Sequence record: NC_106513.1
Direction: 5' to 3' (one strand)
From: Escherichia phage vB_EcoS_ESCO30
Length of the DNA: 64,000 nucleotides
In this document: in pieces, positions 1-58,058 of the stretch
Layout: each line of letters opens with the position of its first letter
Position numbering within the stretch: position 1 is the first letter of the stretch
The notes under the pieces: model-generated
The model's database searches: none
What the model was told of the DNA's origin: nothing
Seen by the model: only the letters and a program-made list of their open reading frames with translations
Program-made: the position numbers and the translations under genes

Positions 1-19
1 CACTATAAAAATTTTTGGG

Positions 20-104
20 GTCGGATTTGCACACTACCAAAAATTGTCGGATTTGCACATACACGCCAGCACGTAACCCTTGGAGCACATGTCGGATTTG
101 CACA
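20..104. repeat. Three direct copies of 14-mer GTCGGATTTGCACA (20-33, 46-59, 91-104)
   Basis: Exact repeats read directly from the sequence; no overlapping ORF with coding support. Confidence 0.8.
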
Positions 105-109
105 AAAGC

Positions 110-127
110 GCAGGGCAATTGCCCTGC
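110..127. repeat. Perfect 18-bp palindrome GCAGGGCAATTGCCCTGC
   Basis: Self-complementary sequence read directly. Confidence 0.8.
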
Positions 128-134
128 TCGCCTG

Positions 135-285
135 AATGCGAATGATAATGAGAATCAATCTCATTTAAAAAGTGAAATGCGAATGATAATGATTCGCATT
201 TAAGAAGGGGAATGAGAACTATTCAAGAAGTGAAATGATTCTCATTTAAAAAGTGGAATGCGAATGATAATGATTCGCATTTAAA
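135..285. repeat. Cluster of short inverted repeats (AAATGCGAAT-N7-ATTCGCATTT at about 175-201 and 257-283; AATGAGAAT/ATTCTCATT variants; further copy at 619-641)
   Basis: Repeated dyad-symmetric motifs read directly; typical appearance of dimeric protein-binding sites. Confidence 0.7.
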
Positions 286-314
286 AACGGAAGTGAGAAA
301 CACTGTTATTTAAG

Positions 315-391
315 TTATCCACAGACTTATTAACAGCACGATTTGACTTGACAGAATCCTAGCCATTTTGAGGCGTTATCCACAGACTTAT
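315..391 (+). promoter_or_regulatory. Two DnaA-box consensus 9-mers (TTATCCACA at 315-323 and 376-384) within a 16-bp direct repeat TTATCCACAGACTTAT
   Basis: Exact match to E. coli DnaA box consensus TTATNCACA; protein binding not demonstrated. Confidence 0.65.
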
Positions 392-404
392 CCCCAAGTT
401 ATTC

Positions 405-424
405 TACTGTATATTTATACAGTA
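405..424. repeat. Palindrome TACTGTATA-TT-TATACAGTA (core copy again at 3671-3686)
   Basis: 9-bp arms, 2-nt spacer; second copy lies next to the reverse-oriented DnaA boxes. Confidence 0.7.
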
Positions 425-680
425 TTCCTACGCAGTGAATAGTTCTAATATAGGCCTAAAACGTCCTGAATCGCATTCTAACGCGTTTAATTTTGGTGGG
501 GATACTAAAACAAGGGCAAAATTGGAGGAGGCTTAAAAATTAATTAGCTCGCTAATGATCACACAAGGCGACACGTAACACCCTAATCATTAGCAGGCTA
601 ACCATCGCGGGCGCGGTCAAATGAGAATGATTCTCATTTGAGAATTGGGGGCACTCCCTGATAGTTGCGCCCCGTGATTA

Positions 681-875
681 TTAGTCTGGTAGTCGATGCG
701 TGATTTTTTCCTCCTCCCCGTAGGAATCGACCAAATACTGATAATAACCATCGTGATCATAAATGACTTTATCATATTCGCCCCGCTCGACCGCTTGCCG
801 GTTTTCCGGCGTATCGGGCACATAGAAAACGTCAACCATTGTGGTAGTTTTAGTTATAATAATTTTATTGCTCAT
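681..875 (-). CDS. Hypothetical pre-early protein (64 aa)
   Basis: ATG start; part of a co-oriented minus-strand gene block; the 17-bp dyad abuts the start. Confidence 0.45.
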   Translation of the reverse strand: MSNKIIITKTTTMVDVFYVPDTPENRQAVERGEYDKVIYDHDGYYQYLVDSYGEEEKITHRLPD

Positions 876-2412: not shown

Positions 2413-3405
2413 TTACTCGCTTTCGGTGTTAACGGTAAAAGTAGAAATATCAATACCTTTCACCATTTCGTCAATCATTTCAGCGATGTTAAAACTTTGC
2501 ACCATTTCTAACATAGCCGCTTCCATAGCTGCGCCTGCTACCGCTTTCGCTTTCTGGTTATTCGGGGCGTACTGGTCAACCGCTACGCTCAGCAGGTTGG
2601 CAATAACTACCCGACCAATCGGCGTATCAATATAACCTTTAATCATAAACGGCGCTTTTTTAGCCGCTACTTTCGTGATTTGAGTTAATGCAATTTTACC
2701 CGCTTCCAGTTTTGCAGCATTTACAACAGCGGATTTATTAGCGGCAACGATGTTAGCAATCTTGGTCATGGTGTTTTTTCCTTTGTTTTCAGTAGTTTGA
2801 GTTTTAACGCTTTGAGTGTTAGAATTTACAGCACGTTTTTCTGTATTGTCAATGGGCTGATCTTCCTCTTTCCAGAAAGTAAAACCAGCCTCCTCTATTA
2901 AATCATTATATACATACGGGTATAATTCCGACGGTAGCAAAAAATTGCCGTCATCATCAAAGGCCATTACAGCCGCCAGACGATAACCGTCATAATCTGA
3001 CCGATTCCAGCCAACTGATAAATAACGCCAAAATGAATCGAGAAAGTTTTCTACGTCATAAAGATCATTATCATTAGCCTCATAGTTTTCTATTGAAAAA
3101 CCTTCTAAGCCCGCCCCAGTATCATAGGCTTTTACTGTGTTGCCTTTTACGATTATGAAATCAGTATCCGGCCCCCGACTAGTGAGCAATTGATAATCCT
3201 GATTATACAAAACAAGCGTTGCCCCTTGTTTATATAACGGTAGAAAACTATTCATATTATAAGCGTCATATTCATCAAAAAAGTTTTGATGAATAGTTTC
3301 AATATTGAAAACAAAATGCCGGATGCTGGTTGTTCTGCTACCATCCAGCAGGTTACGCAGCGCACCTTTTAAGACGGTTGCGTTATCTGGTTTATATAGC
3401 CTCAT
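2413..3405 (-). CDS. Hypothetical pre-early protein (330 aa) with Ala/Lys-rich C-terminal region
   Basis: Long ORF, ATG start, GAGAGGG SD-like upstream; no motif recognised. Confidence 0.6.
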   Translation of the reverse strand: MRLYKPDNATVLKGALRNLLDGSRTTSIRHFVFNIETIHQNFFDEYDAYNMNSFLPLYKQGATLVLYNQDYQLLTSRGPDTDFIIVKGNTVKAYDTGAGLEGFSIENYEANDNDLYDVENFLDSFWRYLSVGWNRSDYDGYRLAAVMAFDDDGNFLLPSELYPYVYNDLIEEAGFTFWKEEDQPIDNTEKRAVNSNTQSVKTQTTENKGKNTMTKIANIVAANKSAVVNAAKLEAGKIALTQITKVAAKKAPFMIKGYIDTPIGRVVIANLLSVAVDQYAPNNQKAKAVAGAAMEAAMLEMVQSFNIAEMIDEMVKGIDISTFTVNTESE

Positions 3406-3670
3406 TTGTTGGCCCTCTCGTTAATCGGTGAGTAAATGATAAGGGTAATTTTCTAGCATAGGCAAAGATTATTTTACTTTTTTATTTTCCTTGCCTAGCG
3501 CCTAGTTTTATGCTAACCGCGCAGCGGCATAGTAAAGAGCAAAACACGGCGAAGCCACCAGGGCGACGCGTTGCGGCTTTACTTTAATATTACCCTACAG
3601 CGTTTTGCTCGTTAGAAAGCGATTTAGGCCGCTTATTTTGGGCATCATTATAATATGTTTCCCATTTACC

Positions 3671-3790
3671 CTGTATATTTATACAGTAGGATAACCTGTG
3701 GATAAGTCTGTGTAAAAGTGCTATAAAGCCTTCCTATTGTGTCAATCAAATTTACAAAATGTATAAACCTGTGGATAACGTTGTGGATAA
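3671..3790 (-). promoter_or_regulatory. Palindrome CTGTATATTTATACAG plus three reverse-oriented DnaA boxes (about 3697-3705, 3770-3778, 3782-3790)
   Basis: Reverse complement gives TTATCCACA three times; mirror image of the 315-424 module. Confidence 0.65.
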
Positions 3791-3897
3791 CTTAAATGAT
3801 AGTGGTTCTCACTACAGTAAAAACTTATTAGGTAGTCTGCTAACTATTTTGTTATAATATAATAGAGATTAAACTAATAACATAAGGAAACTATAAC

Positions 3898-4425
3898 ATG
3901 GGTAAATATAAACATATTGATTATGAGACTGTTAATAAATACTTTTATTATGATGAATCATCGCCATCATTTCTAAGGTGGAAAGTAACGCGAGGAAATA
4001 AAAAGGCCGGTGATATTGCCGGATGTATTAATAACGATGGTTACTATACCGTAGGTTATGATTACGGTGTTTACAGTGTGCATCGTATCATATGGGTATT
4101 ATTTCATGGTGAAATAGATAGCGCCTTATTAATTGATCATATAGATAATAACCGGCTAAATAATAACATTAAAAACTTACGTTTAGTTGATCATATGCAG
4201 AATAATAATAATCGTGTTAATAGTAAGCGTGATAATGATTTACCTCGTTTTATTTATCGTAGTAGTAATGGCAAGCGTGATAGTAACGGACGTGATTATT
4301 TGCTGGCTCAAATTAGGATTCCTAATAGTAAGCGGCGCATTAGTAAGTCTGGTTATGATTTACCTACGTTACTAGATTGGGTGATCAAAAAATGTGCAGA
4401 GCATGGCATTCAGTATAATATTTAA
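3898..4425 (+). CDS. HNH homing endonuclease (175 aa)
   Basis: N-terminal YYDESSPSFLRWK and HRIIW motifs, DHIDNN...NLRLV HNH-type core; very AT-rich. Confidence 0.7.
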   Translation: MGKYKHIDYETVNKYFYYDESSPSFLRWKVTRGNKKAGDIAGCINNDGYYTVGYDYGVYSVHRIIWVLFHGEIDSALLIDHIDNNRLNNNIKNLRLVDHMQNNNNRVNSKRDNDLPRFIYRSSNGKRDSNGRDYLLAQIRIPNSKRRISKSGYDLPTLLDWVIKKCAEHGIQYNI

Positions 4426-5715: not shown

Positions 5716-6123
5716 ATGACTAACGTTAAAACCGCAAAATTTGCATGGAATGAAGAAAACACCCAAAAAGCTGTTTCTATGTATCAGCAATTAATCAACG
5801 AAAACGGTTTAGATTTCGCAAATAGCGACGGTTTAAAAGAGATTGCAAAAGCAGTGGGCGCGGCTTCTCCCGTGTCTGTTCGCTCAAAATTGACCAGCGC
5901 GAAAGCGTATCAGAAAAGCGATAAGCCTCGTAAAGTTGGCGGCGGTAGTTCTATCCGCAAAGCGCATTATGTGCGCGTTATTGCAAAACATGCGATCGAT
6001 TCCGGCATTATCAAAGACGCCGACGATCTGGCATCACTGGAAAGTGCAAAATTGGAAACGCTGGACGCCGTGGCGCAACTATTGGGCGTTGCCGATGAAG
6101 TAAAACAGGCCGCAGGCGAATAA
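5716..6123 (+). CDS. Putative HTH DNA-binding protein (135 aa)
   Basis: Motif EIAKAVGAASPVSVRSKLTSAK resembles the HTH module repeated in ORF 52460-53227. Confidence 0.5.
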   Translation: MTNVKTAKFAWNEENTQKAVSMYQQLINENGLDFANSDGLKEIAKAVGAASPVSVRSKLTSAKAYQKSDKPRKVGGGSSIRKAHYVRVIAKHAIDSGIIKDADDLASLESAKLETLDAVAQLLGVADEVKQAAGE

Positions 6124-6475: not shown

Positions 6476-8143
6476 ATGGTTATTTCCGCAGAAAAACAAT
6501 CCCAGATCATTAAACTTGCCGCTGATTTCAATTTCTATGGTAAACGTCTGCGCGCTACTAAACTGGAGGTCTGCGACGATATTTCAAAAGCGGTTTACGA
6601 TACTGCAAAATATTCCACCGCTATCTGCGACTGGTTGGAAGCAAATAAACCAGCGAAACCAAAAGCGGCGAAAGTAGCAAAAGCCATAAAAAACGACGAG
6701 CGCCCCGAAGCGGCTGGGATTGTTTCTAGTACCGTGGAACAGTGGGAAGTAAAACAAGGTAAACGCTTTATTATTACATCGATTCAGAATAATACTTTTC
6801 CTCATAAAAACTTTTTAGCCGCGCTTGAACAATATGCCCAATTTATCGGTGCTGATTTGCTGGTTAGCAAGTATATTTATAATAAAAACGGATTCCAAAA
6901 TGGTGAGGGCGCGGACGGAATCAAATATGATTCTGCGTTTGATAAATATATCTGCAATAAAAACGTGTTTTTGAATAATCGCCGTTTTGCTTTCATGGCT
7001 GAGATTAACGTGTTACCAACTGCAGATTATCCGCTGTCTGGATTCGCAGAAACTGCAACGGCTTTAAATATTGAAGGTCTGGCAATTGGTCACGCTAAAA
7101 TCACCGCCGAAAGCGTGCCAGCTTTAAAAGGTGAAGTAGTGCGCCGTATGTACTCAACCGGAACGGCGACGTTAAAAAACTACATTCAGCAGAAAGCAGG
7201 ACAAAAGGCCGAAGCGCTGCATAATTTCGGCGCGTTGATTGTCGAGTTCGATGAGGACGGTGAGTTTTTTGTTCGCCAGCTTGAAACAATGGATGAAAGC
7301 GGCATGTTTTATGATCTGAATGTTTGCGCTACTCCCGCCGGATGTTTTGAAACGTCCGATCATGTTTTAGGCTTGCAATATGGCGACATACACGCCGAAA
7401 AATTGGATGACGCTTGCGCCGTTGCGTCATGGGCTGGCGAAAATAGCTTGCTTGATATTCTCAAGCCTAAATATCAGTTTATCCATGACGTTCACGATTT
7501 TACATCGCGCAACCATCACAACCGCGCTTCTGGTGTATTCCTAGCAAAACAGTATGCCGCCGGACGTGATAAAGTTCTGGATGATCTCATCGATACCGGA
7601 CGCGTGCTGGAGTCAATGGAACGTGATTTTAGTCAAACAATCATTGTTGAATCAAACCACGATCTGGCGCTATCCCGTTGGCTGGATGATCGTAATGCTA
7701 ACATTAAAGACGACCCAGCAAACGCGGAACTATATCACCGCCTTAATGCTGCAATTTACGCGGCAATCGGTGATCATGACGATACTTTCAACGTGCTAGA
7801 TTATGCGTTGCGCAAGGTTGCAGGTTGTGAGTTTAATGCCATTTTCCTAACGACTGATCAATCTTTCAAGATTGCAGGCATTGAATGCGGCGTACACGGT
7901 CACAATGGCATAAACGGGAGCCGTGGCAATCCGAAGCAATTTAAGAAATTGGGCAAATTAAACACGGGGCACACTCATACCGCCAGTATTTACGGCGGCG
8001 TTTATACTGCTGGCGTGTCTGGTAGTCTGGACATGGGTTACAACGTTGGCGCGTCAAGCTGGACGCAAACGCATGTTATTACCTATGCAACCGGTCAGCG
8101 TACTCTGATCGACTTTAAGAATGGTAAATTTTTTGTACAGTAA
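6476..8143 (+). CDS. A1: A1-like pre-early protein, calcineurin/Mre11-type metallophosphatase nuclease (555 aa)
   Basis: Metallophosphoesterase motifs GDIHAE, ESNHD, GHTHT; size and position match my memory of T5 A1 (about 556 aa). Confidence 0.7.
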   Translation: MVISAEKQSQIIKLAADFNFYGKRLRATKLEVCDDISKAVYDTAKYSTAICDWLEANKPAKPKAAKVAKAIKNDERPEAAGIVSSTVEQWEVKQGKRFIITSIQNNTFPHKNFLAALEQYAQFIGADLLVSKYIYNKNGFQNGEGADGIKYDSAFDKYICNKNVFLNNRRFAFMAEINVLPTADYPLSGFAETATALNIEGLAIGHAKITAESVPALKGEVVRRMYSTGTATLKNYIQQKAGQKAEALHNFGALIVEFDEDGEFFVRQLETMDESGMFYDLNVCATPAGCFETSDHVLGLQYGDIHAEKLDDACAVASWAGENSLLDILKPKYQFIHDVHDFTSRNHHNRASGVFLAKQYAAGRDKVLDDLIDTGRVLESMERDFSQTIIVESNHDLALSRWLDDRNANIKDDPANAELYHRLNAAIYAAIGDHDDTFNVLDYALRKVAGCEFNAIFLTTDQSFKIAGIECGVHGHNGINGSRGNPKQFKKLGKLNTGHTHTASIYGGVYTAGVSGSLDMGYNVGASSWTQTHVITYATGQRTLIDFKNGKFFVQ

Positions 8144-9218: not shown

Positions 9219-9953
9219 ATGAATCAAGTTAAAATGAATATTACCCGTAATTTCCCGCATATTTCCCGCGTCATGATTTGGGATCTGGACGGCACTATCA
9301 TTAATTCGTTTCATCGTGTAGCGCCTTGCTTTGATAGCGAGGGCAATTTAGATTTAAATAAGTATAAAAATGAAGCCTGCAAACATGATTTAATAATGCA
9401 AGATACACTATTGCCCCTTGTTACATATATGCGCCAGTGCATGAATGACGCAAATACTTTAAACATTATTTGCACCGCTCGACTAATGAGCAAGTCGGAC
9501 TATTATTATTTGCGTAAACAAGGGTTGCGCGGTCGTGGTGATAGTAATATCCGCGTGTTTTCCCGCGATACACTACACAAATATTTTGAGGCTGATAAAG
9601 TTAGCGAGATATACCACAGCAAAGACGCAGTTTATAAAAGTTACTATTTTGGGTTATTCAAACAATTATATCCGAACGCTGATTTTACGATGATTGATGA
9701 TCATAAAGGCGTGCTATCAGCGGCGGCATCATACGGATTTAAAACGCTGGACGCGCAAGCCGTTAACGATATTCTATCAATCGGTGTCACATTGATAGGT
9801 GAAACCTTTATTGATGAATCTCTTGAGGATGATAATGATTATCAGTTCCTAGCCGACCGCCTGCAATTATGTTGGGAAGGTATGACCGAGGAGGAACGCG
9901 CGGAATATAGTTGCAGCCCGCAACAATATATTGAGAAATTAAAAGTTGCGTAA
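9219..9953 (+). CDS. dmp: HAD-family 5'-deoxyribonucleotidase (Dmp-like, 244 aa)
   Basis: N-terminal HAD motif MIWDLDGTIINS (DxDGT); pre-early position as in T5. Confidence 0.65.
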   Translation: MNQVKMNITRNFPHISRVMIWDLDGTIINSFHRVAPCFDSEGNLDLNKYKNEACKHDLIMQDTLLPLVTYMRQCMNDANTLNIICTARLMSKSDYYYLRKQGLRGRGDSNIRVFSRDTLHKYFEADKVSEIYHSKDAVYKSYYFGLFKQLYPNADFTMIDDHKGVLSAAASYGFKTLDAQAVNDILSIGVTLIGETFIDESLEDDNDYQFLADRLQLCWEGMTEEERAEYSCSPQQYIEKLKVA

Positions 9954-40917: not shown

Positions 40918-42756
40918 TTATTCTAAGTAGGAAAATCCTTCTGCATCTTTTTTGACAGTAATCTTATGAGCTAATGGATGCGTATGCCCATGAGAAACAA
41001 TGATAGAATTTAGACTTTCTTCCTCATTTAATAGTTCAACGAGAGTATCAAGTCCTTTCGTATCAATAAAGCTAATTACTTCATCAAGGAATAGAAGATT
41101 AATATTAACTTTACTAATAGATGTTAACAGCATCCGAATAGCTAACAGGGTTGCTAGATTAATTCTACTTTGCTGACCAGTAGAGCAGTTCTCCATACTG
41201 GTACGATTTCCATCATTGAAGATTACTACTTGTAATTTCGTTTCATCAAGTTCAAACCCAAGTGCGAATTTACCACCAGTCATAATGGAAAGGTATTTAT
41301 TAATTAGTTCTTCAAATACTTTCACACTATGCTCTAGTTTATACCCCACCAGATTTTTCAAAGCAGCAATTAGAATATCAAGATCAGCTACAGCTTCTGA
41401 TACTCCATCAAGTTTGGAAGTAATTTCAGTCATTTCTGCTTCAGCTTTCTCAATCTGTTCTAGTTTCGCTTTATATTTTGCATTAGCTAATTCGACATTT
41501 GCATTATGCTCTTTGGCAATTGCAACCTTAGAGCGGCCATCAGCGATTTCCTGTTCTAATTGTCGGATTTGCACCTGTAGGATTTGCACATTGAGTTCTT
41601 CAAAAGAAGCATCACTCATTGAATTTTTGAACTCGTCTCTAGCTACCACTGCTTTATCCAAAGCATCCTTTGCTCTAGAATACGCAATGTACTCAAGTTG
41701 TTCTTTTTTCAACTGTCCTAGCTTAGCTTCAAGGGATTGCTTCTCTTTGAACAGAGGATCATATTCTACTCTAGCCATATCCATTGCTTTTTGAGCAGCA
41801 GTTGTATCCAGGTGAGTACCACAAGTAGGGCATTCAGTATTTGAAGCCTCTTGCTTGAACTTCTGATAACGTTTCTTAACTTCGCTCGCACGTGAGGTCA
41901 CAATCGTTAGGTCACGCGTAACACTCGAGATCTCTTCATTTTGGTCGGTGGGCGCGGGCAAATTTTTGAAAGGTTCAAAAGATTGTTCGGCAACTTGTAC
42001 AGCTTTGTCCAAATTACGCAACTTAGTAATATTAGCCTCTTGAGACTTGGCTAATGCCGCCTTAATTTTCGATTCAGTAAGTTCTTGTGCTAATGGCTCT
42101 TCATCAAACTCCGGCACCTCTACAGGTTCCTGCAAAGTTCCTAGATTATTTTTTCCATTAAGGATTTTCGTAATTACAGCCATTTGGCCCTGCAAATTAT
42201 TTAAGGTATTTGCTATTTCTTTACGGTCGGCCTTAATAGTTTCCGACATTTCTTTGTATTGTTCTTGGTTGAACAAGTTAACAAGAAAAGCCTTACGTGT
42301 TGCATCTGTTGCTTTTAGAAAATCTAGATTAGAACCCACTGATTGATAAATCAGTTTGGTGAATGTTTGAAAGTCACCACCCATAATTTCTTCAATCATC
42401 TTATATGTTTGGGTTGCCGTATGCCCACTAATATCTTCTCCATTCTTAATGAGTGTAACCTTAGCAGTTGATTTAACTACTTTATGCAATTCATACTCAT
42501 CTTCATCTTTTGAGAAGTAAGCGTGCATATCATACTCTTTTTTCGGAGAAGACCAAGAGAACAGAGCATCCTTCTTAATACCACGTGAGTTCTTATTATA
42601 GAACAGCTCTTCTATAACCGTGGCGATGGTAGATTTCCCTAGCCCATTGCCCCCGATTAGTTGAGTAACTGGATTCTTATCGAAATGAATTACGATATCC
42701 TTACCGTAAGACATAACGTTACTAAATTTTAGTGTCTTAATTGTAATCTTTGACAT
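40918..42756 (-). CDS. SbcC/Rad50-like ATPase (about 612 aa)
   Basis: N-terminal Walker A GGNGLGKST, long coiled coil, C-terminal signature/Walker B LFLDEVISFID; start re-picked at MSKITIK. Confidence 0.8.
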   Translation of the reverse strand: MSKITIKTLKFSNVMSYGKDIVIHFDKNPVTQLIGGNGLGKSTIATVIEELFYNKNSRGIKKDALFSWSSPKKEYDMHAYFSKDEDEYELHKVVKSTAKVTLIKNGEDISGHTATQTYKMIEEIMGGDFQTFTKLIYQSVGSNLDFLKATDATRKAFLVNLFNQEQYKEMSETIKADRKEIANTLNNLQGQMAVITKILNGKNNLGTLQEPVEVPEFDEEPLAQELTESKIKAALAKSQEANITKLRNLDKAVQVAEQSFEPFKNLPAPTDQNEEISSVTRDLTIVTSRASEVKKRYQKFKQEASNTECPTCGTHLDTTAAQKAMDMARVEYDPLFKEKQSLEAKLGQLKKEQLEYIAYSRAKDALDKAVVARDEFKNSMSDASFEELNVQILQVQIRQLEQEIADGRSKVAIAKEHNANVELANAKYKAKLEQIEKAEAEMTEITSKLDGVSEAVADLDILIAALKNLVGYKLEHSVKVFEELINKYLSIMTGGKFALGFELDETKLQVVIFNDGNRTSMENCSTGQQSRINLATLLAIRMLLTSISKVNINLLFLDEVISFIDTKGLDTLVELLNEEESLNSIIVSHGHTHPLAHKITVKKDAEGFSYLE

Positions 42757-50908: not shown

Positions 50909-52428
50909 ATATCGCTGGCCTGTTCACCTGTTGAATTTTCAGTTTTGTCTTTCTTAGCACGTTTAGGTTGAGCCGGCTTATCCTTCTCAATAGGGATAAC
51001 GAACTCAGCTTCCATTTGAGATATATCTTCCATTGCTAGGTTGGTAGTGTTATCCATTCGCAGAGTTTCCCAGTTCATCTTAGGCATAAACTTCACGCTA
51101 TCAGAAGAACGAGTTTTAACGAAGTCAAACATAATAGCACCTTGGCCATTATCAGCTTTTGCAGCATTAAGATTAGCAGCCATGTCTGCAGAATCAAGAA
51201 TCCCCTTTGACATACGTGTTCTACCATCTTGATCGATCTGGTAAGGAGCTACGCCAGCCACGTTATGTTTCTGGCAGATAGATTTGAAAGACGAGCTAAC
51301 AACCATCTGTTCTTTCCAGTCATACATATCAATGGTTTTAGAATCTGGAAGTCGGGTTTGGTTAATATAGTCCAGTAAAGCTACTGTAACTTTATCACCA
51401 TATCTAGCAACTAATTTATTTAGTTCTACGTCAACTGTTGTAATGGACAGCTCAGGATCATAAACAATAATCATAGGAGTATGTAGTTCATATCCCTCTA
51501 TTAGCTTACTCTCCATATCGTAGAAATCACTCATCTTAGCCATTGTGTACTGTTTAACGAAGTTATCAAAAAGCTCTTCACCTCCATTAAACATTCTAGC
51601 TCTAGTTCTGGCCAATCTCAACAGAGCTGCACCTTCTAGAGTATTATTACGCATTGCTAATGCTGATACACCAGCTAACATGGCTAGATTACGTCTAAAT
51701 ACTTCATGTTCTTTCATCTCAATTGAGAAGTATGGAGCAATATCTCCATTCAAATATTGCTGAACCTGTATGTTTGAACAGATAATGGATTTACCAGTAC
51801 CACGCCAACCACCAAGCAGTAACGTTTCTGTGCGAGCTAAACCGATTTGAGCGTCGAACTCATTACAAATACCAAGAGCGATTAAGTTCAGTTTGGTATC
51901 TTCTTCTCTCTGGAAAATACGCATGTTATCTGCGTTGAATACTTTTCCAGTATTCGTTACTTTCTCTTCTAATTTTAAGTGAAGGGAGGCAACTCGGTTG
52001 AGAATTTCTCCCTGATCCAGCATTGTTAAATCTTGAAGCACGTCTGTTTCTAGAAGCTTCAGGAATAAATCCTGTGTATATTCGGCTTCTAGGACTTCAA
52101 GTGCCTGTTCCATGCTCACTTCTGGAATTTGAGTGTTAGCTAAGACGACTAGAGCTTGAGAAAGGCGGGCGTTCCTATTAGCTTCAAGCATAAGTGCGTC
52201 AATGGACGGCATTGTGTTATATTTTTTATAATAATTCTGGACGGCTTGGTAAATTGAGGAGAAAGCGTCATTAAAATGATCTTTATGCAGTTTTGAGAAT
52301 GTTTCCAATGCTATTTGCTTCTGTTCGGAAGCTAGAAGCATCTTCAACACTACAGCTTGCACGTTAAACAAGGTCATTCTCCTTTGCACGCTTTCGTGCC
52401 TTCTAAATGCAAAAAGGGGAAGGAGCAT
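50905..52428 (-). CDS. DnaB-like replicative helicase (507 aa)
   Basis: RecA-like core with GTGKS P-loop; GGGGAGGGGG SD-like upstream. Confidence 0.65.
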   Translation of the reverse strand: MLLPLFAFRRHESVQRRMTLFNVQAVVLKMLLASEQKQIALETFSKLHKDHFNDAFSSIYQAVQNYYKKYNTMPSIDALMLEANRNARLSQALVVLANTQIPEVSMEQALEVLEAEYTQDLFLKLLETDVLQDLTMLDQGEILNRVASLHLKLEEKVTNTGKVFNADNMRIFQREEDTKLNLIALGICNEFDAQIGLARTETLLLGGWRGTGKSIICSNIQVQQYLNGDIAPYFSIEMKEHEVFRRNLAMLAGVSALAMRNNTLEGAALLRLARTRARMFNGGEELFDNFVKQYTMAKMSDFYDMESKLIEGYELHTPMIIVYDPELSITTVDVELNKLVARYGDKVTVALLDYINQTRLPDSKTIDMYDWKEQMVVSSSFKSICQKHNVAGVAPYQIDQDGRTRMSKGILDSADMAANLNAAKADNGQGAIMFDFVKTRSSDSVKFMPKMNWETLRMDNTTNLAMEDISQMEAEFVIPIEKDKPAQPKRAKKDKTENSTGEQASDI

Positions 52429-57998: not shown

Positions 57999-58029
57999 AT
58001 TTAAACTCCTCTCTCAAATTTATGAATCT

Positions 58030-58058
58030 ATTATACAGAAAAATTTTCCTGAAAGCAA
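58030..58058 (-). promoter_or_regulatory. Strong sigma70 early promoter TTGCTT-17-TATAAT with A/T-rich UP-like region (matches my recollection of T5 P_N25)
   Basis: Minus-strand reading gives AAATTTATTTGCTTTCAGGAAAATTTTTCTGTATAATAGATTCATAAATTTGAGAGAGGAG; identity to P_N25 is from memory. Confidence 0.75.

Follow-up and report, generated by a model that had tools for sequence, protein, structure and literature searches.

Why does the DNA of bacteriophage T5 halt after 8% of it has entered the cell, and how does transfer restart? Both questions have been open since the 1960s, and they bear on the first 680 or so nucleotides of the stretch analysed here, 64,000 nucleotides of Escherichia phage vB_EcoS_ESCO30 (record NC_106513.1; in what follows, the window). 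Judged by homology, window 1 to about 680 forms the non-coding inner portion of the phage's long terminal repeat. Its orthologue in T5 is 'Repeat Region 3', which is the accepted candidate for the signal (injection stop signal, iss) terminating first-step transfer (Davison 2020), and papers of 2023-2026 still regard it as such. The feature itself is already known, having been described in 1987 and annotated in GenBank, and finding it again is a correct rediscovery. To our knowledge, the palindromes of the region have never been given a role, and Davison's model leaves them unexplained. In the present study, we find that its dyads are Fur-box-type sequences, i.e., predicted Fur sites, and that the palindrome named palD in T5 is of the LexA-box type. 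As to its function, we hold it somewhat more likely than not that the region serves host DNA-binding proteins as a landing pad at the boundary between first-step and second-step transfer. What this adds is the Fur- and LexA-type identity, which turns a descriptive puzzle into specific experiments.

Identity of the region

The window belongs to a Tequintavirus-type (T5-like) phage, as a first, sequence-only reading of it had assumed: its top match is Escherichia phage HildyBeyeler (91.5%), hundreds of Salmonella and Escherichia phage relatives match it, and a search for plasmid similarity found none. Positions 1-516 are collinear, at 90% identity, with T5 AY587007 9238-9776 read in reverse complement (1 to about 520 with 9238-9789), Repeat Region 3 of T5 being AY587007 9194-10409 (Heusterspreute 1987, Wang 2005, Davison 2020), and at least 80% of window 1-700 is covered in 213 phage records. 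A feature-by-feature mapping onto the T5 annotation showed that every named T5 feature recurs in the window in T5's order, that is, DRD, nick/palJ, DRC/DRE, DRB (the DnaA boxes) and palD.

By homology to the annotated terminal repeats of T5 and Kenya-K15, the region lies inside the long terminal repeat, downstream of the rightward pre-early operon, and the annotated repeat ends approximately 350 bp upstream of window position 1 (T5 10139; Kenya-K15 9489). In the right-hand repeat copy this inner boundary is, going by the relatives, the physical right end of the virion DNA. The sequence-only reading had suspected a nearby genome terminus or a packaging or injection control site, and with the orthologue of Repeat Region 3 lying some 350 bp from the inner repeat boundary this suspicion is supported. 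It had also seen no convincing open reading frame (ORF) here, with which our results agree: the ORFs that run across the repeats in 1-680 have no Pfam match, the homologous T5 stretch is non-coding in the T5 annotation, and Rfam, tRNA/tmRNA and coding-potential checks of 1-700 found nothing.

Dyads resembling the Fur box

The half-site AATGMGAAT occurs 11 times in the 64 kb on both strands, and nine of the 11 copies fall within 135-638; the expectation is 1.84 (sd 1.47), and none of 100 shuffles reached 11. The dyads are arranged as follows (here and below, strand is given for those elements that have one).

135-300: Fur-box-type dyad array, equivalent to the T5 DRC copies, palE-I and the 66-bp DRE repeat (153-218 / 234-299)
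135-165, 175-201, 211-246 (split) and 257-282, with a half-site at 290-299: the dyads that form the array
144-162: GATAATGAGAATCAATCTC, 16/19 to the Fur consensus, the best match in the region
617-641: isolated dyad TCAAATGAGAATGATTCTCATTTGA with perfect 12+12 arms; the last pre-early ORF (minus strand, 681-875) lies about 40 nt upstream of it

The likeness to Fur sites was tested in three ways, namely by a consensus scan, by bacterial context and by a reciprocal matrix. For the scan we used the 19-bp iron-box consensus string GATAATGATAATCATTATC, which PMC4506495, among other papers, also uses. At a threshold of 13/19 the 64 kb contain 53 matches; 130-300 accounts for six of these and 617-641 for two, against 0.21 expected in a Markov control on the region's own composition. 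Those of 14-16/19 in this region lie at 138, 144, 179, 185, 260, 266 and 623, and in 130-300 matches of this strength are about 40 times denser than window-wide.

The bacterial context points in the same direction. The exact dyad AATGAGAATNATTCTCATT is present at no fewer than 120 bacterial genome loci, many in GC-rich Betaproteobacteria, and about 110 of the 121 occurrences listed are intergenic; by our own estimate, roughly 17 matches in all would be expected by chance. When 20 genes downstream of it were picked by position and size alone, at least 14 encoded a TonB-dependent receptor, FeoB, a FecI-type sigma factor, FTR1, a PepSY_TM protein or an SBP_bac_6-type binding protein; the breakdown was five TonB-dependent receptors plus one Plug-only protein, two FeoB, four FecI-type extracytoplasmic function sigma factors, and one each of FTR1, PepSY_TM and SBP_bac_6-type proteins.

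The reciprocal matrix was made from 12 phage dyads, selected solely for self-symmetry, and scanned over 24 kb of E. coli K-12. Seven of its eight best matches fell in the fepA-fes, fepD-entS and fepB-entC divergent promoters, which make up 3% of the scanned sequence, and all three of these Fur-controlled ent-fep promoter regions were reached within its best four; when the columns were permuted, with composition and symmetry preserved, only three of 1000 matrices equalled it. A BLAST search of the dyad array against E. coli genomes gave nothing useful, as expected for short sites. Elsewhere in the window, the Fur consensus is matched twice at 16/19, in overlapping positions, at 9825-9849 (GAGGATGATAATGATTATCAGTTCC), within dmp and near the outer end of the terminal repeat.

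DnaA boxes and a LexA-type palindrome

Inward of the dyad array, the following elements were found.

315-335, plus strand: DnaA-box pair 1, TTATCCACA-gac-TTATTAACA; T5 DRB copy 2, in IRC'
376-396, plus strand: DnaA-box pair 2, TTATCCACA-gac-TTATCCCCA; T5 DRB copy 1, in IRD'
405-424: LexA (SOS)-box-type palindrome TACTGTATATTTATACAGTA, 19/20 to the consensus; T5 palD

Paired DnaA boxes in the T5 terminal repeat were described by Davison. In the window, perfect copies of TTATCCACA stand at 315, 376, 3697, 3770 and 3782, i.e., five where 0.63 are expected, all of them in two patches of about 130 bp, and those at 315 and 376 are each followed 3 bp later by a box with one or two mismatches; the boxes conform to TTWTNCACA and are clustered. 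Such pairs, together with iteron-like direct repeats, might be taken for a replication origin of the oriC or plasmid kind. Paired consensus boxes and direct repeats are indeed present, and the resemblance to oriC was remarked on by Davison, but the T5 origins have been mapped near the genome centre, the replication genes lie outside the first-step DNA (Davison), and there is no plasmid similarity, so that an origin at this place seems to us highly improbable.

In the LexA-type box, the CTGT and ACAG arms are fixed across genera, while the centre flips between TTT and AAA. The LexA consensus is TACTG(TA)5CAGTA, that is, CTGT-N8-ACAG with an AT-rich centre, and this is the form against which the window was scored. 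It is matched at 19/20 at 405 and at 17/20 at 3669, the rest of the window reaching at most 15/20. Two further CTGT-N8-ACAG strings, at 51435 and 51766, both score below 15/20 to the full consensus and probably arose by chance. In prophage-like contigs, the exact 16-mer CTGTATATTTATACAG of the LexA-type box is found ahead of a gene resembling umuD and of genes resembling anti-repressors; the genes downstream of it are mostly blank in Pfam, and PHROGs assigns one UmuD-like protein and a recurrent anti-repressor-like family. As a side observation, a recurrent gene of about 90 aa (phrog_450, with weak anti-repressor similarity) starts within tens of bases of CTGTATATTTATACAG in IMG/VR prophage-like contigs and may be an SOS-controlled prophage switch gene.

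The DnaA and LexA-type modules recur in inverted orientation further into the window.

3669-3818: inverted partner copy (IRC-spacer-IRD), T5 Repeat Region 2 according to Davison's description
3669-3688 (LexA-type), 3697-3717 and 3770-3790 (DnaA pairs), 3795-3813 (weak Fur-like): elements of the partner copy, from consensus matches

Window 287-422 and 3671-3818 form the arms of an inverted repeat, 73-80% complementary and about 3.25 kb apart. Upstream of the pre-early gene at 2413-3405 (minus strand, 330 aa) there are promoter-like hexamers, and the LexA-type box of the partner copy (3669-3688) overlaps them. Adjoining the partner repeats is a 175-aa ORF with HNH-like motifs (3898-4425), which recalls the T5 insertion of an HNH endonuclease between Repeat Regions 1 and 2.

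The sequence-only reading had listed three 14-mers, an 18-bp palindrome and a set of dyads, all of which are where it placed them and far beyond chance; that inventory did not include the two DnaA-box pairs or the LexA-type palindrome (405-424), nor did it note the nick motif of 108-115 or the inverted partner copy further in (3669-3818). Its idea of a multi-site protein-binding array holds at the level of predicted sites, with repeats that match the operator consensus of three host DNA-binding proteins. The Fur-type and LexA-type identity of the iss palindromes has apparently not been reported: Davison's text makes no mention of Fur or LexA, and a literature search for T5 with Fur or LexA, including a link to the iss, found nothing relevant.

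Conservation among T5-like phages

The order DRD, AAAAGCGC/palJ, dyads, DnaA pairs and LexA-type box is kept in Tequintavirus, Epseptimavirus and Sugarlandvirus, so that the comparison across T5-like genomes that the sequence-only reading had proposed as a check yields the same element order in three genera; Myunavirus My1 retains the DRD and the dyads. The Vibrio T5-like phage VCPH has nearly the same letters in both DnaA pairs, in the LexA-type box and in the isolated dyad, the last with the same flank GGGCGCGGTCAAATGAGAA. Since elements are identical in phages of different hosts, conserved host proteins are suggested as their partners, and since the DRD-type elements drift, a phage-encoded partner is suggested for those. 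In VCPH, the stretch at 240-410 that stands in place of the main dyad array holds about twelve tandem 15-bp units with the palindrome CAACAGTTG.

Compared with T5, the window is without one 23-bp DRC unit, and both of its DRB copies carry a perfect TTATCCACA, whereas only one does in T5. The two diverge after about 520, where T5 has the palC terminator and the window, like most other relatives, has an inverted repeat followed by the isolated Fur-type dyad at 617-641; this dyad is not in T5 and is present in Kenya-K15, Sugarlandvirus and Epseptimavirus.

544-601: inverted repeat TTAGCTCGCTAATGAT / ATCATTAGCAGGCTAA, the part of the spacer not common to T5

Host or phage binder

If the dyads are read by a protein, is it one of the host or one of the phage? 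The pre-early DNA-binding protein A2 was considered as a common dyad binder and is disfavoured: its homologues are confined to T5-like phages, and dyads also occur in two myovirus lineages. In Escherichia phage ukendt (Phapecoctavirus) and Cronobacter phage CR3 (Certrevirus), unrelated virulent myoviruses, three to four Fur-box-type dyads stand in gene-free gaps of about 1-1.5 kb. The ukendt cluster lies at about 27.7 kb of the record (1455-1590 of the excerpt compared), with a further dyad at record 39024, and that of CR3 at 1450-1590 of its excerpt. A tblastn search of 200 window ORFs against the ukendt genome gave no meaningful homologue, the window amounting to about half of the phage genome and early proteins outside it not being covered. 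Within the sequences covered, a shared phage-encoded dyad binder seems unlikely.

Because dyad clusters occur in such myoviruses, the Fur module may not be specific to the stop and may have another role, such as titration or iron sensing. This leads to an explanation in which the sites act as a regulator sponge or host-state sensor unrelated to the stop, titrating Fur, DnaA and LexA by being clustered on a genome that replicates, or putting a local promoter, e.g., that of the partner region, under iron or SOS control. The Fur-type clusters in non-coding gaps of about 1 kb in unrelated virulent phages would fit it, as would the overlap of the partner LexA-type box with promoter-like hexamers upstream of the gene at 2413-3405 and the characterised pre-early promoter upstream of T5 gene 011. 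Beside the main array, however, there is no clear promoter (9/12 matches at most), and the precise position at the first-step/second-step boundary and the long-range inverted duplication would be left unexplained. On this balance we regard a sponge or sensor unrelated to the stop as rather unlikely.

Nick motif, palJ and a structural block

Between the DRD copies and the dyads, a nick motif and a palindrome overlap.

108-115, minus strand: T5 nick motif CCCTGCGC, orthologue of T5 'major single-stranded nick 1, 7.9%' (99.5% for the right-hand copy of the repeat)
110-127: palindrome GCAGGGCAATTGCCCTGC, T5 palJ

CCCTGCGC is the sequence of T5 major nicks 1-3 and occurs only once in the window, inside palJ, and GCAGGGCAATTGCCCTGC is a perfect 18-bp palindrome. 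Read on the minus strand, palJ resembles a terminator hairpin, with a 7-bp stem of which six pairs are GC, followed by a short T-run tail GCTTTTGTGC; T5 annotates no terminator at palJ, and Epseptimavirus retains the stem with a different loop.

Palindromes of this kind invite the classical reading of a structural plug, in which hairpins or cruciforms, helped by the nick at 108-115, would block passage in the capsid, tail or membrane. Single strands of this DNA have a very high folding potential, with z = -7.8 over 100-300 and z = -3.1 over 300-440, although such z-scores cannot separate protein dyads from hairpins; moreover, the nick motif lies inside palJ, and the literature lists secondary structure as a possible block. 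Against this, the dyads conserve a Fur-type sequence without free covariation, some of their arms are imperfect (T5 GCAAAT...ATTCTC), the same sequences occur as operators in bacteria, and nick-less T5 mutants are viable. Ejection is also complete in vitro with FhuA proteoliposomes (Davison), which speaks against the plug; because it is complete there, the stop should need something from the cell. A purely structural block is thus, in our estimate, quite improbable.

DRD repeats and the terminal-repeat boundary

The outermost module of the region consists of three direct repeats.

19-33, 45-59 and 90-104, plus strand: three polar 15-mers (G/T)GTCGGATTTGCACA, T5 'direct repeat D' (DRD) copies 3, 2 and 1

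The 14-mer GTCGGATTTGCACA itself stands at 20-33, 46-59 and 91-104, its only three copies in the 64 kb. T5 has nine DRD copies in the region, six of which lie beyond window position 1; with the annotated end of the repeat some 350 bp further upstream, the window edge cuts the DRD array short. DRD is the most invariant element across genera, and in T5, Kenya-K15 and My1 the annotated repeat boundary falls in a gap of the DRD array, with two to three copies outside and four to six inside. In the Vibrio phage it has drifted to GATTTCGCACT. The possibility that DRD is a weak DnaA box (ATTTGCACA, 8/9) was considered and rejected on the ground of this drift, the true DnaA boxes being exact there. 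A pair of tandem DRD cores (TTGTCGGATTTGCACCTGTAGGATTTGCACA) also lies within a coding region at 41561-41590; its T5 orthologue, 'direct repeat D copies 11/12', stands in exo2 at a distance of about 370 bp from nick 4.

The boundary pattern, the polarity and the divergence in Vibrio phages point to a phage protein at the boundary as the partner of DRD. Our best guess for the DRD binder is therefore a phage-encoded protein at the repeat boundary, with terminase or concatemer processing as candidate functions. This corresponds to a reading in terms of packaging or terminal-repeat processing: a phage protein, e.g., the small terminase, would read DRD and possibly nick/palJ, set the inner boundary and start packaging from the right end. 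The right end would indeed be packaged first, as may be inferred from the left end being injected first. In its favour are the repeat boundary in the gap of the DRD array, the polar and most invariant nature of the copies, and their drift in the Vibrio phage against unchanged host-type boxes, which is what co-evolution with a phage partner would lead one to expect; on the other side, no terminase recognition site is known for T5, and the tandem pair at 41561-41590 sits in a gene far from any end. This explanation applies mainly to 1-127 and is compatible with the landing pad, and we hold it to be fairly unlikely.

The genes further in agree with a right-end position. The genes A2 (5716-6123), A1 (6476-8143) and dmp (9219-9953) are followed, beyond dmp, by receptor-blocking and receptor-binding genes (context dmp-A1-A2...oad), as at the right end of relatives with both repeats annotated. 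Because this context matches the relatives' right end, the window likely represents the right genome end in reverse complement, or else a single, collapsed copy of the repeat. In passing, window 58024-58058 (minus strand) contains an exact 35-nt match to TTGCTTTCAGGAAAATTTTTCTGTATAATAGATTC, which we take to be the T5 PN25 promoter core of expression vectors.

Proposed function

Taken together, the region is modular, with polar DRD copies flanking the boundary, CCCTGCGC in the palJ hairpin, Fur-type dyads, two DnaA pairs and a near-perfect LexA box, of which the DnaA pairs and LexA box recur inverted 3.25 kb further in. Its T5 identity, element map and conservation and the Fur-, DnaA- and LexA-box character of its elements are direct observations. 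From these we infer that Fur, LexA and DnaA occupy the region and that it has a causal role in the stop. This part of the DNA would reach the cytoplasm as first-step transfer ends, and there abundant host DnaA (partly membrane-bound), Fur and LexA could load onto it. The loaded proteins might form a bulky complex at the channel exit, possibly tethered to the membrane through DnaA and looped with the partner copy, and in this way the boundary would be marked or held until A1 and A2, two pre-early proteins, come into action. For the DRD module, a phage-encoded protein acting at the boundary of the repeat is the likelier partner.

Several points weigh against a host-protein landing pad. The half-sites of the phage are GAGAAT/GCGAAT, not the consensus GATAAT, and the Fur, LexA and DnaA sites on this DNA are only predicted. 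We know of no report that T5 growth depends on fur or lexA. Soluble cytoplasmic proteins on DNA that has already entered are not an obvious block to transfer unless anchored. Similar dyad clusters are found in myoviruses not known to inject in two steps, the main dyad array of the Vibrio phage VCPH has been replaced by an unrelated repeat, and the hairpin potential (z = -7.8) keeps a purely structural reading alive. Finally, functional tests of the iss are lacking according to the 2023-2026 literature, and the BF23 paper likewise states that experimental studies are lacking.

A bolder claim is that the iss palindromes are genuine operators for host Fur and LexA and, with the DnaA boxes, constitute a landing pad or sponge for three regulators, and this we put forward only tentatively. 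If true, two-step injection or the early programme would be coupled to the iron and SOS state of the host, LexA cleavage after A1-driven breakdown of host DNA could help to release the block, and the Fur-box clusters of the myoviruses would suggest that recruiting or titrating Fur is a general phage strategy so far unrecognised. More broadly, virulent phages may prove to make wider use of the sites of host regulators. Should the dyads be operators of the Fur type and palD one of the LexA type, concrete and cheap experiments could confirm or kill the host-factor model.

Comparison with known systems

Like the clusters of Fur operators in enterobacteria, the phage array is built from overlapping hexamer and 7-1-7 type dyads that match the 19-bp iron box. 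It differs from them in standing without an adjacent iron gene or a clear promoter, and from the fep/ent operators in its half-sites, which favour GAGAAT/GCGAAT, and in its setting, with four to six sites in 170 bp of the terminal repeat of a virulent phage. The DnaA boxes resemble those of oriC and datA in being consensus TTATCCACA boxes set in close pairs, eight per terminal repeat; unlike those, they are not at a mapped origin and are arranged in two inverted 130-bp modules 3.25 kb apart. As for the LexA-type box, the one in Repeat Region 3 lies downstream of an operon, without an evident promoter, unlike the LexA boxes of the SOS response, and is unusual in a strictly virulent phage. Nevertheless, it shares the CTGT-N8-ACAG form and the AT-rich centre with the LexA boxes of the E. 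coli SOS regulon and of prophage anti-repressor and umuD genes, and the identical 16-mer is common in prophage-like contigs.

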